Positions 1 through 36,267 of a stretch of DNA of 64,000 bases are shown piece after piece; position 1 is the first letter of the stretch, and each line of letters opens with the position of its first letter. The notes under the pieces are model-generated. The model saw only the letters and a list, made by a program, of their open reading frames with translations. It was not told the origin of the DNA and ran no database searches. This stretch comes from Ostreococcus lucimarinus (lineage: Eukaryota). The stretch lies in NCBI GenBank assembly GCA_000092065.1, contig CP000582.1; one strand, given 5' to 3'. Both the position numbers and the translations under genes were made by a program.

Positions 1-480
1 ATATAGATTGTCCAGTAAAGTTGAAAGTGAAAGAAATCCTGCCGGCAGCAACGTTTGACACATTCGTTGCACTTTCATATCCGTTTGCAAGTGTAGACTT
101 ATCACGCAAGATTCTTGCGTAGTCCGACGACGTGATGCCGACAAATACTGACTTTGCACATCCATTGACGCAATACTTTTTGTCGAGCAACGATGCGGCA
201 GTGCCAAGCAGAACGCGCTGCTGTGGATCGCAGAGACGAGCTTCCATGCGTGACATATCAAAGGTATTGGCATCAAAATGATATACTTGAGCAATGAATC
301 CACCAAAACTTGGTGGAAGTGCACCGTCTAGGGTATCAAATTTGAATAAATCTATGATCCAACGCTTCTCCAAACCTTGAATCGCATCAAACAACGGAAT
401 CTTGTGAGTTACTGTCGACTGGCTGTGAAAAGTCTTAGCGTAGACTCGCACGTCAATACTATGACGTTTATGTTGGGTAG
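1..480 (-). other. PKS module 6: KS N-terminus (partial; continues beyond the window).
   Basis: Translation ...FDANTFDMSRMEARLCDPQQRVLLGTAASLLDKKYCVNGCAKSVFVGITSSDYARIL...GRISFTFNFTGQSI gives typical KS N-terminal motifs, with no stop before position 1. Confidence 0.7.
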
Positions 481-3400
481 TCAAAGAGCAGGAAGACCTT
501 TGTATGGAAATTTGATTTTGATGCGATTCGGACAACATACATTGGTTTTGTTGCGACAAAAAACGAATTAAAGATCGGAGTGTCGGATGCTCAAATGCTA
601 CTAACTTTGGCACATCAATATGAAGCTTCGATGAAAGTGCATCAGCAAGTTCCAAAGCAAAAGTTGAGTCCACGCCGTTGGTCATGACGCTCTCATCCAA
701 AGAAAATGGTCCATTTCTACATCCCCGTAAATCCGTTAGAACGCGCTGCACCACTGAAGCTACATGTGATTGTACGACATCCACGTGCATAGCTTCCAAA
801 TAGTTGTCGTCACTCACAATCTGAGTTGATGGGTGTTTTACCCTATCAAGGAGATCGTCAAGTAGATCCCATTGCTGTAGGCTATGTTCTGTTTGGTTCA
901 GCAGTACTCTAAATTGTGAGTCATATTTCTGCATGTCCAACTTGACTACCAAAACACCAGGAAGCGCACGAGTCAAATGACATTTTGATATTATACTGCA
1001 AAGCTTATTGGGGCAAATCGAGGTCAGGCCCAAGATGGATGAGTCCCATGTTGCATTTAACGCCATACCAACACTCGCAAATGGCCCCAAGCGGATTGAG
1101 ATAATTTCGCTTCCAAAAGAATGAAACCAAAGTGATAGCTCATCAATGTATGCATTTGACGCTGCATACGATGCCGCTCTCCCAAGACCGAAAACAGCGC
1201 TGATTGACGACAGAAATATGTCTATTTGTCGTGAGTGGGACGGAAAAAGCCAAGGCGTATTGTCTTTTTTAGCTTGTACTGAAGTTGCGACTTTTGGTAC
1301 GAAGACTGCCATCATCTGTGCAGGTGTCAGGTGTTTCACTGGAGTCATCTGAAAGACTCCTGCGGAATGTATAACTGACAGTTTTTTATTTTGATCCTTG
1401 CAGAACCGGGATTTAATGGCTGCTAACTCATCTAAATTGCACACACAAGCTCTCGATATTGTCAGATAGTCATCTTCCGTGGAAAATGTTGGATCCACGT
1501 GAAGCACGCGACTTCGCCCTGTGCGGCCAACAATACAAACATTACAATGCGAATGGCGTTTCAAATTATTTATTAAGTGAGCGGTTATGCCATGAGTTCC
1601 ACCATATGTTAAAACATTATGCGAGCAAGTCCATGCGAACTCACGCTGTCGTCCTTCGCGGAGGGTTGAACGTAAACTTACTTGCGCTAATCGCTGTGTG
1701 AAAATTTTACCAGCCTCAACTCTCATCTTGCACGAACTACAACTCAAAAACGTAAACTTTTCAAATACTGGTTTCGGAGCTAAAGCAACTTGCACATGTG
1801 GATACTCCAAATGCAATGCCTGAATTAAGCTCTCCATGGTCCCGAACGTGCAGGCGGCTTCACTTGCAGGACGTGGCTGCGTGGCCAGGTTGAAACAGGT
1901 TGATGAGCATGATCTTGAGACAATGCTTATCAACGGTAAAAACGTGAACATTGATGCGTAAATTGATGCAAATGTGTACGATGAGTCTTCTACTCTTTGA
2001 TAGGGCACTATGTCACACAAGTCCAGGTTAAAGGCACGCTTTCCAATTCGCGAAGCTTTGAAACTACCAAAATTAATACAATCTGTGCCGTCAATTCGTT
2101 GATGTTTTGCGGCTCCATAAACCCAATTGGCCACGTACTGATGCGTCGGTAATTTAGCACGTCTTCGTATTTGTGATGCACTTTCTTCACACTCTATCAA
2201 GTTATTGGAAGATTGAATTCGAGATTTAGTACGTGTAATTTTCCTATTTGAAACTGTACGATGCGCGCACGTGGTATTCAACAATCTTGAGAACTGAACC
2301 ATGGCGCAAGATATACGCAAAAAATGATGCATACACGACTTTAACAGTTGCTCTTTGACTCCTGTATCGCTAAAAAGTGTGTGTTCCATTGCACGACATG
2401 TAGAAATTGAATTCCGGAAGAACTGACATACGCTGAGGAAGCGCCGGTCGCGTACCTGTGGAGTAACGGTCACGCAGCCTTTACCAGTGTTAACACCATT
2501 CGACCCTACAACTTTAAACACAGAAGTTCTTTCGCAGAGATGTACGACCAAATTATCCTTTACTGCATTATGAGTTGTCAGCACTACTTGTGAAAGCATC
2601 GTCAATCGTTCGTTTGTTGTTATACCAACTACGGAATGTACAGCAAAAAGTAGATCTGACATTCGTGCGATATCATTATCCATATTATTTCTTTGCTTGA
2701 ATGTTAGCCATTGTGACGAATCTAGGTAATAGGCTTTACACTCCACTGTCATGTAATCGTGCAGTAAGTACTTTTCGTCGAGAAGTAGTGGGTTGCCGTC
2801 CATAGGGCGCTTATACAGAGCGCTGTAAACGGTCGCCGATAATATCGCGTGAGCGTTTGTACCTTGAAATGCAAACGAGCTCGTTCCCGTCTTCGCATTT
2901 GCTTTATGCACATGCTGGCACGAAGCAGAAGCAGATCGCGGCACAGCAACGTTTGGCTCTTGAGAGGGATTTATTGACATTGCGTGCCACGCATGTACGT
3001 TGAGTAAGCGCATGTGCATTATGCCAGTGTGTCTTTGCATTTCTACGGCACGTGATGCACTTATGAGCCCCGCCACACCGGCAGCACATTCAGCGTGCCC
3101 CATGTTCGTTTTGATTGCATGCAATCGTAAAGTTTCTGCCTGACCCAAAACAGACATCGCGCCTCCTACTTCTATGGGGTCACCAAGTGGCGTCCCAGTT
3201 CCATGCATTTCAAGGGCCCGCACTTCTAATGGCCGAGTCGAAGCGTTTGCCAGGGCTGATTTGATGACTCTGGTCTGCGATGGTCCATTTGGCGCCGTCA
3301 ACGAGCTCGTTCGACCGTCTTGATTTACTGCGGTCCCACACAGCCACACGCTCTCGCTATTGACATTCGCGGTTGGACTCAGTAATAATGTATCACAGCT

Positions 3401-6400
3401 TTCGGCTCGCACGTAACCATCCGCGGCCGCATCGAGCGTCTTGCAGCGGCCATCAGGCGCTAGCATACCAGCGCGTAGAAACATGGCCGTCGTAGTCTCG
3501 GTGAGGATGAGGTTCACGCCACCCGTTACAGTTGAGTCGCACTCACTCTGAAATACAGATGCCACACCGAGATGGACTGCCACAAGGGACGAGGAGCAGG
3601 CAGTGTCGATACTCATCGCCGGTCCTGTGAGATCGAATGTGAAGCATATCCGTCCAGAAGCGACACTGGAAACGCTCGAAGCGGGCACATCTCTGAAATT
3701 GAGTGGGAATATTAGTCGAAGTGCCCCGTACTCATCGGCACTGACACCAATGAAACAGCCTGTTTGACCATCGATTACACCTTGGTCGTCGTAGATGCAG
3801 CCGAAAGTGCACTTGAGTAACGTCCGTTGTCTTGGATCCATTTGCGCAGTTGTGCGTTCATTGAGGTCGAAAATGTGTGCGTCAAAATTGTTTACATTAT
3901 TCATATGAAATGCAAATGGTGGGTTGCCTGATTCAAAGAAAGAATCGAACCGGCTGTCGACGAGCGTCACTTCGTCGTCGTAGGTTGCAGTAGACATATT
4001 GCCGTAGAAAGACGCAAGTGTGATACTTCTATTGCCCAGATTCTCCGCAGAACTGCCTTCCAATACCCGCAAGCTTTGTCGTGATTGAATTGATGATGAA
4101 CTTGAACTTTGTAAACGGTCTGCAAGATGACGAGCTAGTGATTTTACCGTCGGGTAATCAAAACCGAGTGTATGTGGCAGATTGAGAGACGTCTCTACAG
4201 CCAAGCTCATCGCTAACTGCGACATACCGATAGAATCCAGACCTAACGATGTAAGTGGTGTATTTATTGACTTCTCATCTTGATTGATTCCAGTAATAGA
4301 AGACAAATTTCTGAAAATGAGTCCCTCTAGAGATATAAGATCATCGTGAGTTTCATCTTCGGCCCCAGCTTTGGTGGAATAAATGGTAGCGTCATCTTTC
4401 GATGATAATTCGTGTGAATTAAACCCTGAACCCAGATGCGCTTGATTATGTAGTTTTTGCCCTATCACAGAATAACATGGAGCAGAGAAAATATCGCTCG
4501 AAAGTACGTACAGATTTTTCAAGATATCCAAAGCAAGGTGTGGATTTATTGAGGGCATAAAAGCAGTGTTTGCGGAAATTCTACGCGTATCAATAGCCAT
4601 TCCAACTGCACTCCACGCTCCCCATCGAGTACTCACAATGTTCATGCCTGAAGCCTTCTTATGTGCCGACATCATATCAAGTGTTGCATTCGCAGAGGAA
4701 TAGTTGGCTTGTCCTATAGAACCGAAGACGGCGAGGGAAGAAAATACTATTGAAACAAGCATTGCATGGTGTAAGTGCGTTTTAGAACAAGAGAAAGATC
4801 CCGTCTTTGGAGCAAATGTAGACCTAATGGAATGAGGATTTTGTGAAGCATGCAAAGCGTCTTTCGTTACGCCACTCATGTGGACAATTCCAAAGGTGTT
4901 TGTGTCTCCTTCGTATGGTAATACGGTGGTAGAGGCGCACGAGTCATCTTGCCTAAGTTTTAAACTGATTCGCCAATGGTTAAAGAGTTTTGGTTTTGCG
5001 GACTTTCCACTTCTACATGATACACAAATGCCTAGTACATTGTGGTTGTGTGCTAACCAACCAACGTTCATCACCCCAATGCCACCTGTGCCACCTGTAA
5101 TTCCCCAATACTCGCACCTGTTCGAAATGAAGTGTTCCGATGGTAAGTTGTATCGTAGATGTTTCAGGAACGCAATAATGTTTTGGTTTAGTTCTTCATC
5201 AGATACTGAACACTGAGTGTGGTGATTTGACATTGTGCGAAAGCGTTCGCGTTCAATTCTTTCTTCTGTCTGTGTTCGTACTAGCGAAAGAAGGCAAGAG
5301 TAATGCACGAAGTGCATTTGTGACATCTCTATCCAAATATACTGCGACGAGTTTTGTAGCTGCTCATAGGATGCTGTGCAGAGAATCACATCACCAGCAT
5401 TCAGGCTTGACTTGGACAATTTTGTAGCGACTACCCCTATGAAGGGTATATGTGCAACTTTCGCATTCATTAACATACTTTTGACGCTCGATCCCGATGC
5501 GAATGAACGCTTTATTTCAACGAGAATAGACTGGTTAGAATCGGTTGCCACTTGCATCTTGGGGTACAAGAACTGTTGTTGCACTGATATGCGAAGTTGA
5601 CACGGCATTTTGACCTTCCGAAATGTTGAGTTTGTCACGCGTTTTTGCTTTCCTTCCTCATACATAATGCATCGTAAGACAGCCTCCAAGTGTGAATGTC
5701 CGACACTACTTAGCGCCGGTGATTGAACTTTTACATATTTTGACTGCATGAAGCACATCATGCTGGCAGTCTCCACGCCGAAGAGTGCAGGCCTCGATGG
5801 CCACTCAGGTGCATGGATAGATCTTGAATTTTCGGTTTCGTAGTACACACTGTGAACGAAATCTAGCGCACCGCAAGATTTTCTTTCAGTCGTCATCAAA
5901 CTAGATAAGTGACGCATTCTGATGATTGAAGCAGTGCAACCATGCATGGTCATCATGGCAGAAGTTTTGTTCCCCGCGCTATATAAAATGAACGAAGCAT
6001 GTACTTCTCCTGCAGATGCGGTTTGCATCATGCACTTGGAGTCCATCACATCCATACTATGCGATGCCATGCAGTTTTGTCTTATTGACTCAACAGCTTT
6101 TGGTAGGTATCCTGCAGTTATTGAATAAGTCTGACAGATTTGTAGACATGCATCACAAGTTGCCGACATCGTGAAAGGTGATGGCCGGTGTTGTGAATCA
6201 ACTCTACCTAGTATTTTGCTTTGTTTTTCGCAATGTTTTTTTGTGTATGTATGAACGCGTTGTTGAGTGTGAGTCAGAGACGTCAACGCAAATGAAAATG
6301 TGCAATTAATGGCACTTCCTGCATTCGAAAGTATTCCCGTCCGTTGCCAAATTTTAATTTGTACATTTCCAAAATGTGCTGGTTTTATGAAAACCACATC

Positions 6401-12400: not shown

Positions 12401-15400
12401 GGAGGCTATGAATTCACTTTTGTTACGATCGAGCTTGATCTTATGTATTTTGCGATTAGAGCACGCCAACTGTTGAGCAAGAGATTCTTTTAGGCACCGG
12501 TGCAATACATGAAATTTTCTCAGACTTTTGTATTGCGTAAAAGCCTGTAGTAGGATGCTAGAGTGTTGAAACGGCGCATCTTCACCCCGTACAACTAGGG
12601 AAACATTTTCTTTGATGCATTCAGTCTCAGCGCATCGGAACAGTGATGCAAGATACTTGATGGAATTCGTCTCACATAGCTCAACTCGACCTTCCATTTG
12701 CAGCACATAGGCGTGCAATACCATCACCGCATGAGCGACTATTTTTTCACGCATCAGTGATATAAATCGCGCGTGTGCTTGAGTGGTACAAGGTCTTAAG
12801 CTTGTGCTTGGTGAAAATCTTGACACGTACTTGACAATATTGATTCCATTGCTCAAATTATTTTTATGTGGATACCCATTTGCCTTTGTGCGTAGCATTT
12901 TGCATTTCACTTTGAATAACACCACGCAGCCAACCAGATGATTGCCAAGACTCTCACCATGGCTGTCCAATTCAATGTTACAGCGCGTACTTATGCGCCG
13001 CACTGACGTGATCTCAGGAGGAGATGTGCTACAAAACTTTATTATGGTCGGCAGCATCGTCACACACTTTGATACTTTCTGTCCATCTATGACTCCCACA
13101 CTGATCTGCAGAGTCGCGTCAATAATTGAGGGCACATGGCCTGATGTGAAGTTTGTTGATGCAGTCTCAACATGAGCGAGTGCAATGTTCAACCGACGCC
13201 CACTGTCGAAGATCGGGCTCAATGTCTGCGAAGAGAAAACATAAAGTGTGTTGTGTCTATCGCACTTCTTGGATGCATGCTTTATCCTTGCACGACAATG
13301 CTCACCTTGTGAAGTTTCCACTTTGATCGCACCGGTTATGGCGCGGACAGAAACTTCTATACGTTGGTGGTACTGCAAAAGTAATGGCCTCACAATCGCA
13401 AGATCTTGAACCATTGCAGTGTGTAAATCAAATGTACCGCACGCTTGAGCCATGTAATCTATGTACCCAGCCGCTGGAAATAACGGTTTTCCATGGATGC
13501 AATGGTCCGACAGCGCTGGTGTCGGCTGATGGAGGCGCGAAACAATCGAATTGTGGCACACTTTTATCGACGCACCCGAGCTGTGCACTGGAGATGCAAA
13601 CCAGCACTGATTGCAGGAGAATAGCTTGGATGCGACACTATTGCAAGAACAGCCAGAATTTCGTGCTGTCGCCGATAATATCGCGTGAGCGTTTGTACCT
13701 TGAAATGCAAACGAGCTCGTTCCCGTCTTCGCATTTGCTTTATGCACATGCTGGCACGAAGCAGAAGCAGATCGCGGCACAGCAACGTTTGGCTCTTGAG
13801 AGGGATTTATTGACATTGCGTGCCACGCATGTACGTTGAGTAAGCGCATGTGCATTATGCCAGTGTGTCTTTGCATTTCTACGGCACGTGATGCACTTAT
13901 GAGCCCCGCCATACCGGCAGCACATTCAGCGTGCCCCATGTTCGTTTTGATTGCATGCAATCGTAAAGTTTCTGCCTGACCCAAAACAGACATCGCGCCT
14001 CCTACTTCTATGGGGTCACCAAGTGGCGTCCCAGTTCCATGCATTTCAAGGGCCCGCACTTCTAATGGCCGAGTCGAAGCGTTTGCCAGGGCTGATTTGA
14101 TGACTCTGGTCTGCGATGGTCCATTTGGCGCCGTCAACGAGCTCGTTCGACCGTCTTGATTTACTGCGGTCCCACACAGCCACACGCTCTCGCTATTGAC
14201 ATTCGCGGTTGGACTCAGTAATAATGTATCACAGCTTTCGGCTCGCACGTAACCATCCGCGGCCGCATCGAGCGTCTTGCAGCGGCCATCAGGCGCTAGC
14301 ATACCAGCGCGTAGAAACATGGCCGTCGTAGTCTCGGTGAGGATGAGGTTCACGCCACCCGTTACAGTTGAGTCGCACTCACTCTGAAATACAGATGCCA
14401 CACCGAGATGGACTGCCACAAGGGACGAGGAGCAGGCAGTGTCGATACTCATCGCCGATCCTGTGAGATCGAATGTGAAGCATATCCGTCCAGAAGCGAC
14501 ACTCAACGCTTGTGATGTAGCATCTAGTGCACTTGCGGGGACACTTGTGGTTGTGCGCATGACCTCACCATACTCCATCCAAGCGATTCCAATAAACACA
14601 GAAGTGTGAGATATTGTGTATTTCGGTAGACATAGCGAGCTCACGCAGTGTAGTAGCAGACGCTGCTGTGGGTCCATGCTGATCGCCTCTGCTTTTCCAA
14701 TTCGGAAACCTTGCCAGTCGAACATCACGATGCTTTCAACGAAGCAGCCCACTTTTAAACGTGGGTCGCTTTCTCCAAGTTCATCCGACAAAATGCGCCG
14801 TGCTGTTGGCATGAGGGCAATACTGTCGCAGTTTGCGACGCCCGCTGCCCCATGTGAAGTTCCAGATGACACAGCAAGCACACACTGAAGGTTGGGTTGC
14901 ACAAATGGTGCGTTTTGTGGTGAACGACACAGTGCTTCTATCCCGTGCGCTTCGTCACAGCTGTGTTCAACATTTTGCATTAAATATGTGCACAATTTTG
15001 AAATGGTGGGGAAGTCAAATACCAAAGATGGTGCTACTTGCCTGTCGAAGTGTGTCGATATTTTACTGGCTAACTCAATCGCAGATAAAGAATCCAAGCC
15101 GGCGTCGTGGAGGGGGATATCAGGGTCAACATCGAAACCAATCAATGTGCAAACCATCTTATGAAGTAAACTCAGACAGTCCTGGGTGGTGTGACACCGC
15201 ACGCCTGACGTAGTAAACTTTTTCTGACGCTCTAGCGTTGTTTGTTTATCAGCAATTTTCCGAGTGTGCACACTTTGCAAGCCGGTCGTATGTTTCTCAA
15301 GTAGCCAATCAGCCTTCGTCGAGTCACTGGTGAATGCGTTCTGGCATACGACGAGCACTGCGCCACATGATAGAGGTGCATTTTCTATTCTGCGCATGGT

Positions 15401-18400
15401 ACTTTTCAGCGCAGCGAGGGCAGTCTTTGGGTCCATGAAGCCAACTCCTAGACGCGACATATTTCGTTCTATGTACTTATTACGGATCGCCATTCCGACC
15501 TTCCCCCAGGCGCCCCATTGAACGCTGCACACAGGGCGACCAGCTGTGTGCTCAAATTGAGCGAGAGTATCCAAGGCAGAATTTGCGCATGAATAATTTG
15601 CCTGTCCTGGTGAACCTATTCGTGCCGTTATGGAAGAAAAGAAAATGGCGCTTAAAAGCGGTTTGCTTGAGTATAGATCAGCGTCAATGGTGAGAACTTT
15701 AGGAGCAAAGACTTCACGAATGCGTGCTGGCGTTTGTCGCAGAAGCAAGGCATCCGATGTACAACCTGCCGCATGAATAAAGCATAATGAATCCACAGCG
15801 TATCGATTTATCTGTATATTAGTGTGTACGTAGGATTGTACAAACGACACAACGCTGTCACTGTACTGATGCTGTCTTAGCATACAGTTTGTTCGTCCAA
15901 AGCGACTCATTAGTGTATGTGGTGAGCTGTACCTCATTAGGAAAGTACTAGTGAGTTGCCCTGTAGCTCCTGTTCCTCCCATGATGAAGTAAGACCGATT
16001 AAGATCGCAGGAGGCTATGAATTCACTTTTGTTACGATCGAGCTTGATCTTATGTATTTTGCGATTAGAGCACGCCAACTGTTGAGCAAGAGATTCTTTC
16101 AGGCACCGGTGCAATACATGAAATTTTCTCAGACTTTTGTATTGCGTAAAAGCCTGTAGTAGGATGCTAGAGTGTTGAAACGGCGCATCTTCACCCCGTA
16201 CAACTAGGGAAACATTTTCTTTGATGCATTCAGTCTCAGCGCATCGGAACAGTGATGCAAGATACTTGATGGAATTCGTCTCACATAGCTCAACTCGACC
16301 TTCCATTTGCAGCACATAGGCGTGCAATACCATCACCGCATGAGCGACTATTTTTTCACGCATCAGTGATATAAATCGCGCGTGTGCTTGAGTGGTACAA
16401 GGTCTTAAGCTTGTGCTTGGTGAAAATCTTGACACGTACTTGACAATATTGATTCCATTGCTCAAATTATTTTTATGTGGATACCCATTTGCCTTTGTGC
16501 GTAGCATTTTGCATTTCACTTTGAATAACACCACGCAGCCAACCAGATGATTGCCAAGACTCTCACCATGGCTGTCCAATTCAATGTTACAGCGCGTACT
16601 TATGCGCCGCACTGACGTGATCTCAGGAGGAGATGTGCTACAAAACTTTATTATGGTCGGCAGCATCGTCACACACTTTGATACTTTCTGTCCATCTATG
16701 ACTCCCACACTGATCTGCAGAGTCGCGTCAATAATTGAGGGCACATGGCCTGATGTGAAGTTTGTTGATGCAGTCTCAACATGAGCGAGTGCAATGTTCA
16801 ACCGACGCCCACTGTCGAAGATCGGGCTCAATGTCTGCGAAGAGAAAACATAAAGTGTGTTGTGTCTATCGCACTTCTTGGATGCATGCTTTATCCTTGC
16901 ACGACAATGCTCACCTTGTGAAGTTTCCACTTTGATCGCACCGGTTATGGCGCGGACAGAAACTTCTATACGTTGGTGGTACTGCAAAAGTAATGGCCTC
17001 ACAATCGCAAGATCTTGAACCATTGCAGTGTGTAAATCAAATGTACCGCACGCTTGAGCCATGTAATCTATGTACCCAGCCGCTGGAAATAACGGTTTTC
17101 CATGGATGCAATGGTCCGACAGCACTGGTGTCGGCTGATGGAGGCGCGAAACAATCGAATTGTGGCACACTTTTATCGACGCACCCGAGCTGTGCACTGG
17201 AGATGCAAACCAGCACTGATTGCAGGAGAATAGCTTGGATGCGACACTATTGCAAGAACAGCCAGAATTTCGTGCTGTCGCCGATAATATCGCGTGAGCG
17301 TTTGTACCTTGAAATGCAAACGAGCTCGTTCCCGTCTTCGCATTTGCTTTATGCACATGCTGGCACGAAGCAGAAGCAGATCGCGGCACAGCAACGTTTG
17401 GCTCTTGAGAGGGATTTATTGACATTGCGTGCCACGCATGTACGTTGAGTAAGCGCATGTGCATTATGCCAGTGTGTCTTTGCATTTCTACGGCACGTGA
17501 TGCACTTATGAGCCCCGCCATACCGGCAGCACATTCAGCGTGCCCCATGTTCGTTTTGATTGCATGCAATCGTAAAGTTTCTGCCTGACCCAAAACAGAC
17601 ATCGCGCCTCCTACTTCTATGGGGTCACCAAGTGGCGTCCCAGTTCCATGCATTTCAAGGGCCCGCACTTCTAATGGCCGAGTCGAAGCGTTTGCCAGGG
17701 CTGATTTGATGACTCTGGTCTGCGATGGTCCATTTGGCGCCGTCAACGAGCTCGTTCGACCGTCTTGATTTACTGCGGTCCCACACAGCCACACGCTCTC
17801 GCTATTGACATTCGCGGTTGGACTCAGTAATAATGTATCACAGCTTTCGGCTCGCACGTAACCATCCGCGGCCGCATCGAGCGTCTTGCAGCGGCCATCA
17901 GGCGCTAGCATACCAGCGCGTAGAAACATGGCCGTCGTAGTCTCGGTGAGGATGAGGTTCACGCCACCCGTTACAGTTGAGTCGCACTCACTCTGAAATA
18001 CAGATGCCACACCGAGATGGACTGCCACAAGGGACGAGGAGCAGGCAGTGTCGATACTCATCGCCGGTCCTGTGAGATCGAATGTGAAGCATATCCGTCC
18101 AGAAGCGACACTCAACGCTTGTGATGTAGCATCTAGTGCACTTGCGGGGACACTTGTGGTTGTGCGCATGACCTCACCATACTCCATCCAAGCGATTCCA
18201 ATAAACACAGAAGTGTGAGATATTGTGTATTTCGGTAGACATAGCGAGCTCACGCAGTGTAGTAGCAGACGCTGCTGTGGGTCCATGCTGATCGCTTCTG
18301 CTTTTCCAATTCGGAAACCTTGCCAATCAAAGTTCGACACGTTTCTCAGTTTCCACATCGCGCACGACAAGTTTTCATCAAAGTGATAATAATGATCTGT

Positions 18401-20257
18401 TTCGAGAAGCTGTGTCAATTGAGTAGAAACCAGCACGTGTGTTCGCGTAGCTAACAAAAATAGATGATTCTCAGAGTGTTGACGCAATTCGTGTTCAACT
18501 GTCGCGTTCTGTGTCGTCTCCGTAGACTGTCTATATGTTGACTGATCCGTGTTCGTAATAAACGCTGTGATGTCATTGACCGTAGGATAGTCATACAGAA
18601 ATGTTGTCGGTAAGTCAATCTGGAAATACTCACTCATTTCAGCGATTATCACTACTGTCTGTGCTGAAGAAAGTCCCAGTGAATGTATAATCGGCTCATA
18701 CACACATTCAAGTGGAGAAAGTGAATGTGCGCAGCTTTGCAAAGCCTGTAGAACAAGCCATTTATCGTGCTTCTCAACACACTTTTTGGGATGTTTGCCG
18801 GAGAAAGCGCATGTCTGGTTATTTTGATTCGAAGACAGTCGATGTGACGATGGCATTCCAAACAGAAGCACGTCACAAAGAGACGTGACCTGCTCTTTTG
18901 CAATATTGTTATCTTCAACAGTTGGTGCGAGGTCTATATCGCTTCGATATCTTTGTTCGGCAAGCCGAGCACACGGGTACAGTATCGTACCATCGAAAGT
19001 ATCATGCATGTTAGTAACATCTCGTGAATCACTTTTTACGAGTTGGTATGGAGTTCCCGAACAGTTGAAAAAATCCGTCCTCTGTTGAAAGTCTCGCATT
19101 AATGCAAACTTGGAAGCGACTAGCATTTTACCATAATGAAATGGGAGGGTAACAAGTATTGGGCACAGTTTATTGATTTTGGTTTTCGTATCAATCAAGT
19201 CAGTTTGTCTCTCTGCTTCAGCCTCGGCGACGAGAAAAAATATCGAAATACCAGTTGTTGACCCTCCCAGTATGAAACTATCATTATCATTCTCGAGAAG
19301 GAGTCTTATGCGCTCAGCTGGATAAAGCTGTGTATTCAGTCGTTCCACGAATTCAGCCACTTTTGCACGAGTCCATCCACGAAACGCGAACATGTGCACG
19401 CGATTGCAAAGTGACTGATTTCTCAAATCGTTGTCACAAAATACAGTCATATGCCTGACCGTGGACTTTGCCCGAATGGATAACCATAGAAGAAACTTTG
19501 CAATTAATATAGGATACGCCCAGTGCATCCAAGAGTAAGTGAACTTTGCACCAGTCGAAAAAATATTTGAAGAAACTTCCTGTGAGATCCAGCCTTGCGA
19601 GTGCCCGATACTATGGTAGAAAGGTTGAATCTTTCGAAAGAGCAACTTGGAGCTTTTGAGAAACGTACTGAAGTGTACTATGTAGGTCAGTGAAGATGAT
19701 ATCGACGACTCCGCAAATTTATCAATCAATCTTACTTTCATCGGAATTGATTTTGAATAGCATTGTATTCGAATGTGATAGGCATCTGAATTATCGATCG
19801 AGGTTTCATCCAACGCACTGAGACCTTGGCCAGCAAAATTGAATGCATATTCCGTTGACCGTGGCGCAATCTTCGAAACATTATACGAAAAATGCGGTCT
19901 GCGAAGAAGCAGAGATCCATGTCGATAAACTGTTGGATCAAACCGTCTTCTACTCCGCGCCTGTTGAAATAGTTTTGCAGTATGCAAGGTTTCCTCAGGG
20001 CACTTTCCATAACTTTGCATTGAAGCAAAGTAATAGAAGGAGCTCAAATCAACGTCATGATCGAATGCGTCAGTCTGAACACTAAAAAGCTCATCGAAAA
20101 CACCCCAGTACAGCCGATCAAATGCGCTCGTGAAATGATGGGTTATTCTTTTGTGTCCACACCACTGTTCCGACGCCGAGTTGCTCGTGCATAGCTCGAG
20201 GTATGGGAACCCTTGACCCGGGAAATACGTACGCACTGAGACGTTTGGGAGTCGCAT
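1..20257 (-). CDS. Giant type I modular polyketide synthase, partial (C-terminus beyond window start): loading AT-ACP followed by at least 5 KS-KR-ACP modules plus the N-terminus of a sixth KS. No introns or stops found in the stretches translated by hand.
   Basis: Reverse-strand translation read by hand. KS motifs: DTACSSSLVAVHLG (active-site Cys), EMHGTGTPLGDPIE, KTNMGHAECAAGVAGL, SSFAFQGTNAHAIL. KR motifs: YFIMGGTGATGQLTSTFL (Rossmann), GQANYSCANSALDTLAQ plus WGAWGKVGMA (catalytic Tyr). ACP motifs: PLHDAGLDSLSAIEL and NGVDSTFALELADAL. AT motifs: AFNFAGQG and YHSIGHSQG. Frame is continuous 2880->1 (960 codons, no stop), continuous from the loading ACP into KS1, and the 3609-bp repeat is an exact multiple of 3. 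The ORF track lists no minus-strand ORFs here despite this. Confidence 0.85.
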   Translation of the reverse strand, partial: MRLPNVSVRTYFPGQGFPYLELCTSNSASEQWCGHKRITHHFTSAFDRLYWGVFDELFSVQTDAFDHDVDLSSFYYFASMQSYGKCPEETLHTAKLFQQARSRRRFDPTVYRHGSLLLRRPHFSYNVSKIAPRSTEYAFNFAGQGLSALDETSIDNSDAYHIRIQCYSKSIPMKVRLIDKFAESSISSSLTYIVHFSTFLKSSKLLFRKIQPFYHSIGHSQGWISQEVSSNIFSTGAKFTYSWMHWAYPILIAKFLLWLSIRAKSTVRHMTVFCDNDLRNQSLCNRVHMFAFRGWTRAKVAEFVERLNTQLYPAERIRLLLENDNDSFILGGSTTGISIFFLVAEAEAERQTDLIDTKTKINKLCPILVTLPFHYGKMLVASKFALMRDFQQRTDFFNCSGTPYQLVKSDSRDVTNMHDTFDGTILYPCARLAEQRYRSDIDLAPTVEDNNIAKEQVTSLCDVLLFGMPSSHRLSSNQNNQTCAFSGKHPKKCVEKHDKWLVLQALQSCAHSLSPLECVYEPIIHSLGLSSAQTVVIIAEMSEYFQIDLPTTFLYDYPTVNDITAFITNTDQSTYRQSTETTQNATVEHELRQHSENHLFLLATRTHVLVSTQLTQLLETDHYYHFDENLSCAMWKLRNVSNFDWQGFRIGKAEAISMDPQQRLLLHCVSSLCLPKYTISHTSVFIGIAWMEYGEVMRTTTSVPASALDATSQALSVASGRICFTFDLTGPAMSIDTACSSSLVAVHLGVASVFQSECDSTVTGGVNLILTETTTAMFLRAGMLAPDGRCKTLDAAADGYVRAESCDTLLLSPTANVNSESVWLCGTAVNQDGRTSSLTAPNGPSQTRVIKSALANASTRPLEVRALEMHGTGTPLGDPIEVGGAMSVLGQAETLRLHAIKTNMGHAECAAGMAGLISASRAVEMQRHTGIMHMRLLNVHAWHAMSINPSQEPNVAVPRSASASCQHVHKANAKTGTSSFAFQGTNAHAILSATARNSGCSCNSVASKLFSCNQCWFASPVHSSGASIKVCHNSIVSRLHQPTPVLSDHCIHGKPLFPAAGYIDYMAQACGTFDLHTAMVQDLAIVRPLLLQYHQRIEVSVRAITGAIKVETSQGEHCRARIKHASKKCDRHNTLYVFSSQTLSPIFDSGRRLNIALAHVETASTNFTSGHVPSIIDATLQISVGVIDGQKVSKCVTMLPTIIKFCSTSPPEITSVRRISTRCNIELDSHGESLGNHLVGCVVLFKVKCKMLRTKANGYPHKNNLSNGINIVKYVSRFSPSTSLRPCTTQAHARFISLMREKIVAHAVMVLHAYVLQMEGRVELCETNSIKYLASLFRCAETECIKENVSLVVRGEDAPFQHSSILLQAFTQYKSLRKFHVLHRCLKESLAQQLACSNRKIHKIKLDRNKSEFIASCDLNRSYFIMGGTGATGQLTSTFLMRYSSPHTLMSRFGRTNCMLRQHQYSDSVVSFVQSYVHTNIQINRYAVDSLCFIHAAGCTSDALLLRQTPARIREVFAPKVLTIDADLYSSKPLLSAIFFSSITARIGSPGQANYSCANSALDTLAQFEHTAGRPVCSVQWGAWGKVGMAIRNKYIERNMSRLGVGFMDPKTALAALKSTMRRIENAPLSCGAVLVVCQNAFTSDSTKADWLLEKHTTGLQSVHTRKIADKQTTLERQKKFTTSGVRCHTTQDCLSLLHKMVCTLIGFDVDPDIPLHDAGLDSLSAIELASKISTHFDRQVAPSLVFDFPTISKLCTYLMQNVEHSCDEAHGIEALCRSPQNAPFVQPNLQCVLAVSSGTSHGAAGVANCDSIALMPTARRILSDELGESDPRLKVGCFVESIVMFDWQGFRIGKAEAISMDPQQRLLLHCVSSLCLPKYTISHTSVFIGIAWMEYGEVMRTTTSVPASALDATSQALSVASGRICFTFDLTGSAMSIDTACSSSLVAVHLGVASVFQSECDSTVTGGVNLILTETTTAMFLRAGMLAPDGRCKTLDAAADGYVRAESCDTLLLSPTANVNSESVWLCGTAVNQDGRTSSLTAPNGPSQTRVIKSALANASTRPLEVRALEMHGTGTPLGDPIEVGGAMSVLGQAETLRLHAIKTNMGHAECAAGMAGLISASRAVEMQRHTGIMHMRLLNVHAWHAMSINPSQEPNVAVPRSASASCQHVHKANAKTGTSSFAFQGTNAHAILSATARNSGCSCNSVASKLFSCNQCWFASPVHSSGASIKVCHNSIVSRLHQPTPALSDHCIHGKPLFPAAGYIDYMAQACGTFDLHTAMVQDLAIVRPLLLQYHQRIEVSVRAITGAIKVETSQGEHCRARIKHASKKCDRHNTLYVFSSQTLSPIFDSGRRLNIALAHVETASTNFTSGHVPSIIDATLQISVGVIDGQKVSKCVTMLPTIIKFCSTSPPEITSVRRISTRCNIELDSHGESLGNHLVGCVVLFKVKCKMLRTKANGYPHKNNLSNGINIVKYVSRFSPSTSLRPCTTQAHARFISLMREKIVAHAVMVLHAYVLQMEGRVELCETNSIKYLASLFRCAETECIKENVSLVVRGEDAPFQHSSILLQAFTQYKSLRKFHVLHRCLKESLAQQLACSNRKIHKIKLDRNKSEFIASCDLNRSYFIMGGTGATGQLTSTFLMRYSSPHTLMSRFGRTNCMLRQHQYSDSVVSFVQSYVHTNIQINRYAVDSLCFIHAAGCTSDALLLRQTPARIREVFAPKVLTIDADLYSSKPLLSAIFFSSITARIGSPGQANYSCANSALDTLAQFEHTAGRPVCSVQWGAWGKVGMAIRNKYIERNMSRLGVGFMDPKTALAALKSTMRRIENAPLSCGAVLVVCQNAFTSDSTKADWLLEKHTTGLQSVHTRKIADKQTTLERQKKFTTSGVRCHTTQDCLSLLHKMVCTLIGFDVDPDIPLHDAGLDSLSAIELASKISTHFDRQVAPSLVFDFPTISKLCTYLMQNVEHSCDEAHGIEALCRSPQNAPFVQPNLQCVLAVSSGTSHGAAGVANCDSIALMPTARRILSDELGESDPRLKVGCFVESIVMFDWQGFRIGKAEAISMDPQQRLLLHCVSSLCLPKYTISHTSVFIGIAWMEYGEVMRTTTSVPASALDATSQALSVASGRICFTFDLTGSAMSIDTACSSSLVAVHLGVASVFQSECDSTVTGGVNLILTETTTAMFLRAGMLAPDGRCKTLDAAADGYVRAESCDTLLLSPTANVNSESVWLCGTAVNQDGRTSSLTAPNGPSQTRVIKSALANASTRPLEVRALEMHGTGTPLGDPIEVGGAMSVLGQAETLRLHAIKTNMGHAECAAGMAGLISASRAVEMQRHTGIMHMRLLNVHAWHAMSINPSQEPNVAVPRSASASCQHVHKANAKTGTSSFAFQGTNAHAILSATARNSGCSCNSVASKLFSCNQCWFASPVHSSGASIKVCHNSIVSRLHQPTPALSDHCIHGKPLFPAAGYIDYMAQACGTFDLHTAMVQDLAIVRPLLLQYHQRIEVSVRAITGAIKVETSQGEHCRARIKHASKKCDTSMKQFDSPTIAPLLRSNVHVVTHSISSYDLHHNAASLSNTSAAFIIAVNAVIGDAVSQKIAIKGLRWFASCGVSIFESVSKVKTVGSYTISGCSMSLDKLLGFDSQFKASSLTCKAPCKIQNITIFYECQDADFEPVPRKIQACSVMQVAADIALLTSLMRRHIELIHCTNATKQLHQICKVAVQENIVPSNSYVDQHKFFDKTVPSALYLRLSDEKGKKTEQLTIIGGSGGIGRLIRTKMQCIKLPNRSGKSQIYVHERTFYIECFMYVWRTHNHNCMLTDKCSSIRLVHAAGCTSDALLLRQTPARIREVFAPKVLTIDADLYSSKPLLSAIFFSSITARIGSPGQANYSCANSALDTLAQFEHTAGRPVCSVQWGAWGKVGMAIRNKYIERNMSRLGVGFMDPKTALAALKSTMRRIENAPLSCGAVLVVCQNAFTSDSTKADWLLEKHTTGLQSVHTRKIADKQTTLERQKKFTTSGVRCHTTQDCLSLLHKMVCTLIGFDVDPDIPLHDAGLDSLSAIELASKISTHFDRQVAPSLVFDFPTISKLCTYLMQNVEHSCDEAHGIEALCRSPQNAPFVQPNLQCVLAVSSGTSHGAAGVANCDSIALMPTARRILSDELGESDPRLKVGCFVESIVMFDWQGFRIGKAEAISMDPQQRLLLEHSQRLFHSHLFSIYTGISLGISSYPEVSLGAREHSCAYSASGQHISVASGRLAYIFDMQGPAVSVDTACSSALVAMYIARRETLGCRNTFDAVHDMLCGGVHIISPRNSYLCYLAGMLSAEGRCKVLDMHADGYVRGECCELQILSRCKSHTQRCVLMACTVAQDGRTSSLTAPNGIAQVILISTTAHAATVEVDHIGAIQLHGTGTILGDPIEVSSTFKALRPPMKVSHAPLMAQAVKSRSGHAEPASGCASFAHLVHSLSESAAIAIVHLRHLNAHVSDVLSLNSKIQLALFTRENMQSLSRTQAISSFAFQGTNAHAIVSVAHDEFQIRRQLACKSIMYTPIDCWGLQIMAPFRAHVTNRVLETVFLLNHVENQFLTDHQVLNRTCLPGTLLAQILRESMKNITKNQTLLLLRDVVFIKPAHFGNVQIKIWQRTGILSNAGSAINCTFSFALTSLTHTQQRVHTYTKKHCEKQSKILGRVDSQHRPSPFTMSATCDACLQICQTYSITAGYLPKAVESIRQNCMASHSMDVMDSKCMMQTASAGEVHASFILYSAGNKTSAMMTMHGCTASIIRMRHLSSLMTTERKSCGALDFVHSVYYETENSRSIHAPEWPSRPALFGVETASMMCFMQSKYVKVQSPALSSVGHSHLEAVLRCIMYEEGKQKRVTNSTFRKVKMPCQLRISVQQQFLYPKMQVATDSNQSILVEIKRSFASGSSVKSMLMNAKVAHIPFIGVVATKLSKSSLNAGDVILCTASYEQLQNSSQYIWIEMSQMHFVHYSCLLSLVRTQTEERIERERFRTMSNHHTQCSVSDEELNQNIIAFLKHLRYNLPSEHFISNRCEYWGITGGTGGIGVMNVGWLAHNHNVLGICVSCRSGKSAKPKLFNHWRISLKLRQDDSCASTTVLPYEGDTNTFGIVHMSGVTKDALHASQNPHSIRSTFAPKTGSFSCSKTHLHHAMLVSIVFSSLAVFGSIGQANYSSANATLDMMSAHKKASGMNIVSTRWGAWSAVGMAIDTRRISANTAFMPSINPHLALDILKNLYVLSSDIFSAPCYSVIGQKLHNQAHLGSGFNSHELSSKDDATIYSTKAGAEDETHDDLISLEGLIFRNLSSITGINQDEKSINTPLTSLGLDSIGMSQLAMSLAVETSLNLPHTLGFDYPTVKSLARHLADRLQSSSSSSIQSRQSLRVLEGSSAENLGNRSITLASFYGNMSTATYDDEVTLVDSRFDSFFESGNPPFAFHMNNVNNFDAHIFDLNERTTAQMDPRQRTLLKCTFGCIYDDQGVIDGQTGCFIGVSADEYGALRLIFPLNFRDVPASSVSSVASGRICFTFDLTGPAMSIDTACSSSLVAVHLGVASVFQSECDSTVTGGVNLILTETTTAMFLRAGMLAPDGRCKTLDAAADGYVRAESCDTLLLSPTANVNSESVWLCGTAVNQDGRTSSLTAPNGPSQTRVIKSALANASTRPLEVRALEMHGTGTPLGDPIEVGGAMSVLGQAETLRLHAIKTNMGHAECAAGVAGLISASRAVEMQRHTGIMHMRLLNVHAWHAMSINPSQEPNVAVPRSASASCQHVHKANAKTGTSSFAFQGTNAHAILSATVYSALYKRPMDGNPLLLDEKYLLHDYMTVECKAYYLDSSQWLTFKQRNNMDNDIARMSDLLFAVHSVVGITTNERLTMLSQVVLTTHNAVKDNLVVHLCERTSVFKVVGSNGVNTGKGCVTVTPQVRDRRFLSVCQFFRNSISTCRAMEHTLFSDTGVKEQLLKSCMHHFLRISCAMVQFSRLLNTTCAHRTVSNRKITRTKSRIQSSNNLIECEESASQIRRRAKLPTHQYVANWVYGAAKHQRIDGTDCINFGSFKASRIGKRAFNLDLCDIVPYQRVEDSSYTFASIYASMFTFLPLISIVSRSCSSTCFNLATQPRPASEAACTFGTMESLIQALHLEYPHVQVALAPKPVFEKFTFLSCSSCKMRVEAGKIFTQRLAQVSLRSTLREGRQREFAWTCSHNVLTYGGTHGITAHLINNLKRHSHCNVCIVGRTGRSRVLHVDPTFSTEDDYLTISRACVCNLDELAAIKSRFCKDQNKKLSVIHSAGVFQMTPVKHLTPAQMMAVFVPKVATSVQAKKDNTPWLFPSHSRQIDIFLSSISAVFGLGRAASYAASNAYIDELSLWFHSFGSEIISIRLGPFASVGMALNATWDSSILGLTSICPNKLCSIISKCHLTRALPGVLVVKLDMQKYDSQFRVLLNQTEHSLQQWDLLDDLLDRVKHPSTQIVSDDNYLEAMHVDVVQSHVASVVQRVLTDLRGCRNGPFSLDESVMTNGVDSTFALELADALSSKLHIDVPKLVAFEHPTLRSLIRFLSQQNQCMLSESHQNQISIQRSSCSLTTQHKRHSIDVRVYAKTFHSQSTVTHKIPLFDAIQGLEKRWIIDLFKFDTLDGALPPSFGGFIAQVYHFDANTFDMSRMEARLCDPQQRVLLGTAASLLDKKYCVNGCAKSVFVGITSSDYARILRDKSTLANGYESATNVSNVAAGRISFTFNFTGQSI
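540..4050 (-). other. PKS module 5: KS-KR-ACP.
   Basis: KS C-terminal 2/3 (2832-3664) is identical to the array KS, while its N-terminal part is divergent. KR: LSVIHSAGV and GLGRAASYAASNAYID (about 1150-1380). ACP: NGVDSTFALELADALSSKLHIDVPKLVAFEHPTLRSLIRFL (about 540-720). Confidence 0.75.
4150..7990 (-). other. PKS module 4: divergent KS-KR-ACP.
   Basis: Divergent KS: AVSVDTACSSALVA (about 7425-7466), HGTGTILGDPIEV, SSFAFQGTNAHAIV (about 6692-6733). KR: GQANYSSANATLD...RWGAWSAVGMA (about 4690-4760). ACP: SLGLDSIGMSQLAMSLA (about 4200-4250). Confidence 0.65.
8000..11370 (-). other. PKS module 3: KS-KR-ACP, with a mosaic KR.
   Basis: KS Cys about 10826. Region 9645-10316 is identical to the other copies, 8770-9645 is divergent, and 7625-8770 is identical again (KR Tyr about 8595, ACP Ser about 8091). 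Confidence 0.7.
11390..14980 (-). other. PKS module 2: KS-KR-ACP with no AT.
   Basis: KS Cys codon about 14435; KR Rossmann about 15954/12345 (copies); KR Tyr about 11985; ACP Ser about 11481. The gap from KS C-terminus (SSFAFQGTNAHAIL at about 13684) to KR Tyr is about 563 aa, too short to hold an AT plus the KR N-terminal subdomain. Confidence 0.75.
15000..18520 (-). other. PKS module 1: KS-KR-ACP with no AT.
   Basis: KS Cys codon about 18044; KR catalytic Tyr about 15594; ACP Ser about 15090. Sequence identical to modules 2/3 (tandem copy). Confidence 0.75.
18560..18800 (-). other. PKS loading ACP domain.
   Basis: Translation ...YEPIIHSLGLSSAQTVVIIAEMSEYFQIDLPTTFLYDYPTVNDITAFI has ACP-like helix II/III context; LGLSS is the probable phosphopantetheine site (Ser codons about 18665-18670). 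Leads directly in frame into the KS1 N-terminus (...NFDWQGFRIGKAEAISMDPQQRLLLH). Confidence 0.6.
18950..20257 (-). other. PKS loading acyltransferase (AT) domain; candidate start codon at 20257.
   Basis: In-frame stop TAA at 20338-20340, then MRLPNVSVRTYFPGQG... About 150 aa later comes AFNFAGQGLSALDE, and about 73 aa after that GHSQG (plus 19590-19604, minus strand). That spacing is typical of malonyl-CoA:ACP transacylase-type ATs. Start codon uncertain; an upstream exon is possible. Confidence 0.6.
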
Positions 20258-20513
20258 GACCGCCTGTTGATAATCGTAGGAAATTTTTTACACAAGTGAC
20301 GCGATATGGTGCGATGCGATCTGGCGCGCATAGTACGTTTCTGTACTTGTGTAGCATAACGATGTGACAACTGTGCTACTTGATAGGAAATACTTCGGAA
20401 GTACGTAAGCGGGCGAAACTTTTATAGTTCGTGTGTGCCTTAGGAAGCATATTGTCTGCAAGGAAATGATTTAATGTGCTCGTTTTACACTATCTATACC
20501 AAGTAAATGCTAT

Positions 20514-27744: not shown

Positions 27745-27816
27745 GCACCATTAGTCCAACGGTTAGGATATGAGCCTTCCAAGCTCGAGACCCGGGTTCG
27801 ACTCCCGGATGGTGCA
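27745..27816 (+). tRNA. tRNA-Gly (anticodon UCC).
   Basis: GCACCATTAGTCCAACGGTTAGGATATGAGCCTTCCAAGCTCGAGACCCGGGTTCGACTCCCGGATGGTGCA folds as a cloverleaf. 7-bp acceptor stem GCACCAT/ATGGTGC; anticodon loop CTTCCAA; T-loop GGTTCGACTCC. Matches eukaryotic tRNA-Gly-TCC. Confidence 0.9.
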
Positions 27817-27890
27817 CTACTCACCATCGGTGGTTCACGACTCACCAACCTTGAGGGGCACTGACATGCTCAGGGAGGTTATATATTTTA

Positions 27891-31142: not shown

Positions 31143-31227
31143 TACTCTTTTCGTACAGCTTAGATAACACCGTGCGTCTAAGGCTACACGTTCGAAGAAT
31201 CAGCCACACACAATTCTAAACTTCGTT

Positions 31228-35276: not shown

Positions 35277-35472
35277 CGTGACGCCACTGACTCGTGAAAG
35301 TTTGGCGGCTTCCGAAGGCAAGTTTAGGAGAGGTTATATTTATGCTCGATCGCTCAATTCACATAGAGGCAAAAGTAGTCCGAACAGAGATCAGGGACAA
35401 CGTGTTACATTTTGTAGACTAAACTATTGTCGATCCGTCCACAGTGTCAAAAGGTGCACGCGATGATTTCTC

Positions 35473-36267
35473 CTACTTTTCAGTGTTCAGACCGGCTATG
35501 CCTGCAGCGATACGCTCCTCTCGTCTCGCGATTTTACGAGTTCTAACAGACTTGTTTTTCGCTCTTCGTGCCTCAAACTGGTCGGCTAAGGACTTCTCTC
35601 TGGCCTTCTCTGCCTTGGCCTTGTGGATGGCTTCCATCAAGACCCGCTTGTTCTTGAACACATTCCCCTTACATTTGAGGTACATGGAGTGGTACATGTG
35701 CTTATCGATTTTCTTCGCATCTCTGTACTTTGACAATAGTCTGCGCAGCACTCGGTGGCGACGAAGCCAAAGTACTTTGGTGGGAAGTCTGGCCTCGCGA
35801 GTACCGCGTCTTTTACCGTAACCGGTGTGTCGGCCTAGTCGCTTGGCGGCCTGCTCTCTCTTTGTACGAGCGCGCGAGTGAATCTATAATGACAACATAT
35901 TTGTAGGTCAGTACAGGCGTTCTTAGCCAAAGGGACGCGGTCACGCAACGACTCGCACAACGTACCTTCGTAGGTTTTCGGATCACGAAACCATCTTTCA
36001 CGAGTTTACGGATGTTTTGTCGCGAGTTTGCAGCTGCGATCTCGTTGACCTAAGAAGCGCAAAATTAAATGGGTTAGAGTGTTTGCTCCCCAGGGCGTCG
36101 TAATGCGGGATGTATAGTACACGTGGACGTATACGTGATCGTGTACAGATCCTACAGATCGGGTTGGAGGCTGTTTCGCGCACCTCGTTAGGGTCCATCC
36201 AGATCTTGCGTGCACCGCAATTCAACACGGATGCGGCGAGGCGTTTTTGCAACTTTAATGAGACCAT
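35473..36267 (-). CDS. RPL19: 60S ribosomal protein L19e, 3 exons.
   Basis: Exon 1 (36188-36267) [28 protein letters not shown]. Exon 2 (35966-36051) [28 protein letters not shown]. Exon 3 (35473-35883) [27 protein letters not shown]...[41 protein letters not shown]...*. GT-AG introns of 136 and 82 nt. Confidence 0.9.

Follow-up and report, generated by a model that had tools for sequence, protein, structure and literature searches.

The 5′ part of the giant AT-less polyketide synthase gene OluPKS3 of Ostreococcus lucimarinus: dehydratase domains in the first modules and a conserved N-terminal region with weak AT-like features

Introduction

AT-less modules, in which the reductive domains directly follow the KS domain, are known from bacterial trans-AT polyketide synthases (PKSs), and modules without an AT are also found in giant type I PKSs of algae. 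In Mamiellales, including Ostreococcus lucimarinus CCE9901, giant type I PKS genes are a conserved and structurally variable feature of the low-GC region BOC1 on chromosome 2 (bioRxiv 10.1101/2025.04.21.649811), and natural PKS deletions have been reported in O. tauri. The closest described system is OluPKS3 of O. lucimarinus itself (JGI protein 30000), which was classed as noniterative and trans-AT in the sections of Shelest et al. (2015, PMC4661987) that deal with this protein. The domain order given there (supplementary Table S2) is ACP-(KS-DH-KR-ACP)x3-(KS-KR-ACP)x2-KS-ACP-C-…-KS-P-loop, with 14 KS domains; the full architecture holds additional DH domains as well as an ER and a C domain. 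In the same sections modules 1–3 are presented as a module duplication, and the active-site motif of KS4 is given as DTACSSA. A free-standing AT serving such PKSs has been inferred in the literature. The O. lucimarinus protein XP_001416378.1, annotated as "polyketide synthase", has 18,193 aa and 1,995 kDa (PMC6681478).

Giant algal PKSs matter because their products are not known, because they may have ecological roles and because a toxin precedent exists in the PKZILLAs. PKZILLA-1 and PKZILLA-2 of Prymnesium parvum are likewise giant algal enzymes of the trans-AT type with KS-(DH)-KR-ACP modules; they reach 3.2–4.7 MDa, their genes contain introns, they have many KS0 bimodules and they were matched to a polyether toxin (10.1101/2024.01.29.577497). 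OluPKS3 differs from them in that it is encoded by one ORF, has a size of ~2 MDa and has had no product assigned to it; toxicity is not known from Ostreococcus. Another giant type I PKS of a green alga is PKS1 of Chlamydomonas reinhardtii (~80 kb; Heimerl et al., 2018, in the brief account given in 10.1101/2024.01.29.577497); a zygospore wall maturation phenotype is described for it there, whereas none is known for OluPKS3, and algal class and module composition differ. Nearer relatives are OtaPKS1/4 of O. tauri, MicPKS2 of Micromonas and the Bathycoccus PKS, which, according to the relevant sections of PMC4661987 and bioRxiv 10.1101/2025.04.21.649811, share with OluPKS3 the low-GC outlier location and the MDa size. 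By the same sections, the PKSs of the Mamiellales BOC1 have AT-less KS-(DH)-KR-ACP modules and module duplications in common; the number and order of their modules vary strongly by species and strain.

The locus analysed here shares with OluPKS3, as portrayed in the sections of PMC4661987 cited above, the organism, the flanking genes, the order of the first five modules, the duplication of modules 1–3, the DTACSSA motif of KS4 and the lack of AT domains in the modules. Both the gene and its organisation, with AT-less modules and an internal duplication of modules, are therefore already annotated and published, and the novelty implied by an earlier, sequence-only reading of this DNA (the original prediction) does not hold: the gene is in RefSeq, and the sections mentioned had covered architecture, AT-less nature and duplication in 2015. 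Details that go beyond that published account are the decay of single domains, with DH3 truncated, the DH of module 4 reduced to a remnant and KR5 degenerate, as well as a mosaic of gene conversion at the DNA level and the hint of an AT relic at the N-terminus. The published domain listing has nothing ahead of ACP0, whereas we describe at this place a conserved 520-aa region with weak AT-like features; this N-terminal domain is the sole thread of the present analysis with some novelty.

Results and Discussion

A single open frame covers the 5′ part of OluPKS3

Six-frame scanning of the 64-kb stretch of O. lucimarinus DNA analysed in this work (the window) showed that one frame of the minus strand stays free of stops over 6,762 codons (2..20287); its first ATG is located at 20257, and it runs off the start of the window. 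Since the second-longest open frame within the window has only 1,094 codons, at a GC content of about 46%, a frame of this length is not due to chance. The original prediction had proposed a continuous minus-strand frame, and neither stops nor frameshifts were found across the 6,762 codons. It had also remarked that the list of open reading frames supplied with the sequence has no entry here, which is correct even though the frame itself is open, because ORFs running off the end of the source were left out of that list. The extension of the gene past position 1, also anticipated, was confirmed on a 360-kb JGI metagenome contig (Ga0494219_00130, hereafter L001), where a PKS of 16,671 residues is called with a start that lies 288 codons into the frame. 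The L001 frame thus implies a protein of ~16,959 aa (288 + 16,671) as one ORF, a length that does not match the 18,193 aa of XP_001416378.1.

We are highly confident that positions 2..20257 of the minus strand represent the initial ~40% of OluPKS3, a giant type I PKS of O. lucimarinus CCE9901 built from multiple AT-less modules. The product of the upstream neighbour is an exact match to XP_001416379.1 / ABO94672.1 of this strain, and, since the number XP_001416378.1 adjoins the first of these accessions, we infer that the PKS gene corresponds to XP_001416378.1, with which organism, annotation and architecture also agree. It is best placed in the low-GC outlier region on chromosome 2. The proposal that an algal nuclear genome here encodes a giant type I PKS of many modules in one ORF is borne out. 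Among database proteins, the best matches of the PKS were from Bathycoccus and uncultured relatives, and the flanking genes recur on >100 marine metagenome assemblies, those from TARA included.

Domain order and catalytic motifs

The features of the locus are collected in Table 1. Pfam searches detected the KS domains with E-values of 5e-128 (ketoacyl-synt) and 7e-85 (Ketoacyl-synt_C). The active-site Cys lies at aa 749, 1952, 3155, 4282 and 5564, and this residue, the His of HGTGT and the second His (K(T/S)xxGH) are kept in all five complete KS domains. The catalytic Tyr of the KR domains was located at aa 1565, 2768, 3898, 5196 and 6374, and the one ORF contains six PP-binding domains, ACP0 and five module ACPs, whose motifs follow the pattern G(L/V)(D/S)S. 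The protein is a modular type I PKS, with Cys-His-His KS domains, one ACP per module and collinear repeats on one polypeptide. KS, KR and ACP motifs had been predicted to recur at least five times, and both Pfam and the motif search returned five of each; a sixth KS running off the window, equally foreseen, begins at about aa 6635 and has ~128 residues inside the window.

Table 1. Features of the PKS locus (nucleotide positions in the window; aa, residue of the PKS counted from the ATG at 20257)
Feature	Position	Strand	Evidence and remarks
OluPKS3, N-terminal 6,752 codons	2..20257	-	Pfam KS, KS_C, KR, PP-binding, PKS_DH_N
N-terminal 520-aa region	18698..20257	-	GHSQG at nt 19592-19606; AT-aligned core 18854-19855
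ACP0, loading carrier protein	18566..18685	-	Pfam PP-binding 27.4 bits, E = 4.2e-6; GLSS replaces GxDS
KS1	17285..18538	-	Cys aa 749, HGTGT, KTNMGH
DH1	16604..17215	-	His motif DHCIHGKPLFP (aa 1059), Asp motif IIDATLQ (aa 1185-1191); C-terminal half compact
KR1	15488..15994	-	Pfam KR; GGTGATG; Asp at LDD position (TSD); Tyr 1565
ACP1	14969..15190	-	GLDSL
Module 2, KS2-DH2-KR2-ACP2	11360..14929	-	3,609-nt tandem duplicate of module 1
Module 3, KS3-DH3(truncated)-KR3-ACP3	7970..11320	-	DH3 part nt 9593-9997
Module 4, KS4-(DH remnant)-KR4-ACP4	4112..7939	-	DTACSSA, KSRSGH; DH-like remnant 5996-6607 (DHQVLN)
Module 5, KS5-KR5-ACP5	545..4093	-	no DH signal; KR5 GGTHGITA
KS6 start, cut by window edge	2..385	-	ketoacyl-synt E = 1e-15, profile positions 32-168
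Carotenoid cleavage dioxygenase (RPE65) fused to GST_N	20514..23258	-	Pfam; not part of the PKS

The data are best explained by the architecture [520-aa N-terminal domain]-ACP0-(KS-DH-KR-ACP)x2-(KS-truncated DH-KR-ACP)-(KS-DH remnant-KR-ACP)-(KS-KR-ACP)-KS6…. The modules had been called trans-AT-like because a distance of about 563 aa between each KS and the next KR Tyr seemed too short for an integrated AT. This value holds for modules 1, 2 and 5 (564, 564 and 558 aa) and fails for module 3 (491 aa) and module 4 (661 aa); the spacing is occupied by DH and KR structural regions. The absence of an AT from the extension modules itself stands, as neither Pfam nor a custom AT HMM placed one inside any module: Acyl_transf_1 gave zero Pfam matches across the 6,752 aa, and the custom HMM, run with filters off, found no AT in any of the six frames of the 64-kb window.

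Dehydratase domains in modules 1–3

At a gathering score of 27, the Pfam family PKS_DH_N matched modules 1–3 with 38.6–38.7 bits; the score was 25.9 bits in module 4, and nothing was found in module 5, which has a 456-aa interdomain region without any Pfam family. When scored with custom DH profiles, of which two were made from homologous sequences, module 4 reached 17.3 bits and module 5 gave −0.4 and −1.6 bits. The sequence HCIHGKPLFP is present at aa 1059, 2262 and 3465 in modules 1–3, and the full His motif of modules 1–2 reads LSDHCIHGKPLFP. In these two modules, 'VPSIIDATLQ…MLPT' was aligned by the custom profiles to the Asp motif 'hPAllDaaLq…vPf'; the IIDATLQ motif is absent from modules 3–5. 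An alignment of 18 DH sequences showed H35, D163 and Q167 to be nearly invariant. DH3 keeps only about 135 N-terminal aa (HMM positions 1-143 or 5-146 align) and diverges thereafter, and the remnant in module 4 carries the motif DHQVLNRTCLP.

An AF2 model of the DH1 region contained a hot-dog fold at residues 7–116 with pLDDT values of 80–94. When the DH model was compared with the PDB by Foldseek, each of the top 42 matches was a FAS/PKS dehydratase, a DH-like pyran synthase or a modifying region holding one of these, with the DH domain of human FAS as the best match (E = 8e-6). The C-terminal half of the DH is compact and had pLDDT <50 in the model. Since no recognisable GYxYGPxF motif was found in DH1 and DH2 and the C-terminal hot-dog was poorly modelled, dehydration by these two domains is a prediction from sequence and model.

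An Asp at the LDD position is the signature of B-type KRs, which normally precede dehydration. This Asp is present in KR1–4, as TSD or TKD, and absent from KR5, whose glycine-rich motif (GGTHGITA) is degenerate.

The original prediction had assigned only a KR to every module. This does not agree with PKS_DH_N scores above the gathering score in modules 1–3 nor with the structural matches of the AF2 model to FAS/PKS dehydratases; for modules 1–2, a KR-only domain content was refuted by the DH domains. The poly-beta-hydroxy (1,3-polyol) chain deduced from KR-only modules fails with it, since modules 1–3 carry DH domains and modules 1–2 have both the His and the Asp motif. The product should accordingly be no pure polyol, which corrects the predicted chemistry of the first modules. 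The further connection drawn with polyether or polyol toxins is speculative.

In its complete form, the earlier proposal placed modules of nothing but KS, KR and ACP behind a loading AT-ACP, to make a 1,3-polyol chain in a novel synthase for a toxin or a polyol lipid. The fivefold occurrence of KS, KR and ACP, the absence of AT from the modules, the lack of a convincing DH in modules 4–5, and GHSQG and other AT-like landmarks at the N-terminus with their weak collinear hhalign match (see below) are all compatible with it. We nevertheless regard it as very unlikely, given that PKS_DH_N exceeds its gathering score in three modules, two of them with both catalytic motifs, that the structural matches are PKS/FAS DH domains, that the published full architecture, in the sections of PMC4661987 concerned, includes more DH domains together with an ER and a C domain, that no curated profile backs the AT call, and that the gene is not new.

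OluPKS3 is itself a published member of the AT-less algal lines and probably works like the others, namely the Mamiellales BOC1 PKSs, Chlamydomonas PKS1 and the PKZILLAs. In the mechanism that we propose, a starter would be placed on ACP0, and each KS would then condense a malonyl unit, which an AT outside the modules would deliver to the ACP of the module. In modules 1–2, the KR, with its Asp typical of the B type, would reduce the beta-keto group and the DH would dehydrate the product, giving alpha,beta-enoyl intermediates. Modules 3–5 would most likely end at the beta-hydroxy stage; module 5 possibly ends at the beta-keto stage, its NADPH motif being degenerate.

Module repeats and integrity of the gene

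A blastn comparison, by which the module repeat was set because its period is above the limit of Tandem Repeats Finder, showed that positions 9649-14722 and 13258-18331 are 99.88% identical (6 mismatches in 5,074 nt) with a period of 3,609 nt. A segment of 1,121 nt, comprising the C-terminal half of the KR and the ACP, is 100% identical in modules 1–3, and an 836-nt KS core is 99.8–99.9% identical among KS1, KS2, KS3 and KS5. At the protein level, with the module boundaries set in this analysis, identity to module 1 is 95.4% for module 2, 76% for module 3 and 42% for module 5. Near-identical patches inside diverged modules, as seen among modules 1–3 and in KS5, indicate that the modules arose by recent tandem duplication and still undergo gene conversion, as judged from the pattern of identity.

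Stretches of 1.1–5 kb at 99.9–100% identity between modules could also arise from an assembly artefact (repeat expansion or a mis-join), or the gene might be a decaying pseudogene. Two metagenome contigs, L002 and L003, would fit such an explanation, as they lack 6,999 nt corresponding to modules 2 and 3 and jump across the 1,121-nt repeat, and so would the disagreement in ORF length between the reference and the metagenome contig. However, the frame runs over 6,762 codons without a stop or frameshift, the catalytic residues of all KS, KR and ACP domains are kept, and the variants between strains leave the frame open. The independent contig L001 is moreover collinear with the first 10 kb at 99.97% identity, reproducing modules 1–2 and part of module 3, and the shorter contigs (~21-24 kb) join exactly across the perfect 1,121-nt repeat, as a repeat collapse predicts. 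An artefact or a pseudogene is therefore extremely unlikely, and we retain tandem duplication with gene conversion as the explanation of the near-identical modules. The shorter form in L002 and L003 reflects either a repeat collapse or real variation in copy number.

Genes flanking the PKS

The upstream neighbour of the PKS, an RPE65-GST_N fusion gene (Table 1), lies on the same strand, 257 nt away from the start of the PKS. The other ORFs of the flank encode a HAD hydrolase, a pogo/Tc5 transposase, a DEAD helicase, a GH2 beta-galactosidase, an ABC1 kinase (spliced), RPL19e, V-ATPase d, a ChlI-like AAA protein, ClpP, a geranylgeranyl reductase and TIMELESS; one flanking protein besides the fusion is an exact match to XP_001416137.1 of O. 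lucimarinus CCE9901. The neighbours of the PKS are housekeeping genes and form no biosynthetic cluster. A bacterial origin or contamination of the sequence was ruled out by the eukaryotic neighbours, the exact O. lucimarinus proteins and the spliced ABC1 kinase. Unlike bacterial trans-AT PKSs, OluPKS3 has no MT domains and no adjoining AT or tailoring genes: neither a discrete trans-AT nor tailoring genes were found in the 44-kb flank.

A conserved N-terminal region with weak AT-like features

The 520 aa ahead of ACP0 contain the motifs FPGQG, FAGQG and GHSQG at aa 22, 152 and 228, and were taken in the original prediction, together with ACP0, as a loading AT-ACP. The GQG and GHSQG motifs and ACP0 are indeed present; the AT part of the call is matched by no curated profile. 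Neither this region nor its homolog P0177 (see below) had a Pfam or NCBIfam match at E<=10, comparison of the region with PDB sequences gave noise only, and an HMM of 70 cis-AT domains, run with filters off, scored it at −1.8 bits.

Word-indexed homolog searches with the single sequence or a three-sequence profile returned nothing. An exhaustive search among 1.84 billion representatives gave P0177 as the sole homolog (39% identity over 390 aa). P0177 keeps GHSQGWISQEV, LLLRRP, S(I/L)RA, GGS and VTLPFH; both GQG motifs are lost in it. A scan of metagenome loci for the region recovered only the same or near-identical Ostreococcus loci, and the region was seen only in Ostreococcus-like sequences. 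When compared with L012, a 94%-identical Ostreococcus variant, it showed 38 synonymous and 26 nonsynonymous differences in 420 codons. By these comparisons, the N-terminal region is coding, conserved and under purifying selection. A natural disruption of the region was also considered and rejected, as the frame is intact in four of four contigs and the differing starts in L001 and L002 come from the gene caller.

In order to compare the region with ATs, we aligned its three-sequence profile to an AT alignment with hhalign; a FabD sequence served as seed in this AT comparison. One collinear alignment of 262 columns was obtained (score 26.2, P = 0.013, probability 3.4%), in which FAGQG, GHSQG, an Arg, 'MFAFRG', 'NDNDSFILGGS' and 'PFH' land on AT landmarks. 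None of 120 column shuffles reached this score (14.6±2.3, maximum 23.3), and control profiles of KS, KR and DH scored 16.0–18.4. The distance between Ser and His is 154 aa, ~45 longer than the about 109 aa of FabD. An AF2 model from a two-sequence alignment had a mean pLDDT of 31.6 and was confident only for a beta-alpha-beta-beta-alpha unit at residues 288-350.

On this sequence basis, we tentatively suggest that the N-terminal region may be a relic or highly diverged AT-like domain. A possible alternative, which we likewise hold at low confidence, is that it represents a genuine, highly divergent cis acyltransferase that loads ACP0 or even all module ACPs. Such an enzyme would be consistent with the conservation of GHSQGWISQEV, of an Arg ~42 residues downstream and of TLPFH in a homolog with 39% identity, with the beta-alpha-beta-beta-alpha unit (288-350), which is also conserved in P0177, with landmarks collinear with those of FabD and PKS ATs at a score well above that of the shuffled profiles, with the purifying selection on the region and with its place directly ahead of an ACP, as in a loading didomain. 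Against it stand the lack of a match at E<=10 in Pfam Acyl_transf_1, NCBIfam and PDB sequences, the negative score of the unfiltered AT HMM, the low hhalign probability, the disappearance of both GQG (oxyanion) motifs from the homolog, the long Ser-to-His spacing and the low pLDDT of the model. More doubtful still is that a cryptic, extremely diverged AT, unlisted in the published OluPKS3 architecture, has been kept in cis. If this were true, an algal megasynthase regarded as 'trans-AT' would retain its own loading, or general, AT and would represent a surviving intermediate stage of the displacement of AT domains that has been proposed for algal evolution.

With respect to the homolog of the AT-like region, the P0177 domain seemingly ends at a stop codon located just ahead of the ACP position, which hints that the N-terminal domain can also occur free-standing.

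Near-identical DNA patches and module number in the polyketide synthase

The modules of the giant polyketide synthase (PKS) OluPKS3 share two sets of near-identical DNA patches (see table), outside which the host modules are only 42–82% identical at the protein level. As judged from sequence, such a mosaic of near-identical patches in diverged modules is typical of what ongoing gene conversion between modules would produce. In two independent metagenome contigs (L002 and L003), the 1,121-nt perfect repeat bridges modules 1 and 4 directly, leaving out the 6,999 nt that comprise modules 2 and 3 (window 8777–15775). This absence reflects either a collapse of the assemblies or natural variation in module copy number.

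The inferred RefSeq counterpart of OluPKS3, XP_001416378.1, has 18,193 aa (PMC6681478), and the single PKS ORF implied by the metagenome contig Ga0494219_00130 amounts to 288 + 16,671 = 16,959 aa. The two lengths are thus about 1,234 aa apart, roughly one module, a gap that could stem from the gene model or from the number of modules.

The N-terminal region ahead of the first carrier protein, ACP0, had a single distant homolog, P0177, encoded on contig L009. A stop codon closes P0177 at the position where O. lucimarinus reads on into ACP0, and the contig runs just 42 nt beyond this stop codon. With so little sequence after the stop, P0177 could be a free-standing protein, or an intron or frameshift could follow.

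Genes and other features around the synthase

A carotenoid cleavage dioxygenase with a C-terminal GST_N fusion lies on the same strand as the PKS, 257 nt upstream of its start. The ORF of a pogo/Tc5-type transposase falls within a local GC peak (52–54% vs about 46% in the surroundings), and several metagenome contigs carry it at the same place. Strong opposite AT skews were observed at window 30001–32000 (+0.118) and 34001–36000 (−0.166), in a stretch where long ORFs are scarce; at the corresponding metagenome loci, small tubulin- and glucokinase-like fragments were called. The genes behind these fragments are therefore probably intron-rich, and a C-terminal fragment of RPL19e lies in the same stretch. 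The division of an ABC1 kinase domain over two overlapping frames implies an intron or a frameshift.

Features of the window and of contig L009
Feature	Location	Strand	Remarks
1,121-nt repeat, 3 copies	window 7656–8776, 11046–12166, 14655–15775		100% DNA identity
836-nt repeat, 4 copies	window 2832–3667, 10059–10894, 13668–14503, 17277–18112		99.8–99.9% DNA identity
P0177	L009 136–1683		only distant homolog of the PKS N-terminal region
Carotenoid cleavage dioxygenase (RPE65) + C-terminal GST_N fusion	window 20514–23258	−	
tRNA-Gly(TCC)	window 27745–27817	+	
pogo/Tc5-type transposase ORF	window 28108–30741	+	877 codons; HTH_Tnp_Tc5 + DDE_1
RPL19e C-terminal fragment	window 35476–35883	−	
tRNA-Phe(GAA)	window 41833–41905	−	
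ABC1 kinase domain, two overlapping open frames	window 47225–47692 and 47689–48648	+	profile positions 2–92 and 123–235
(AG)29 microsatellite	window 53154–53211
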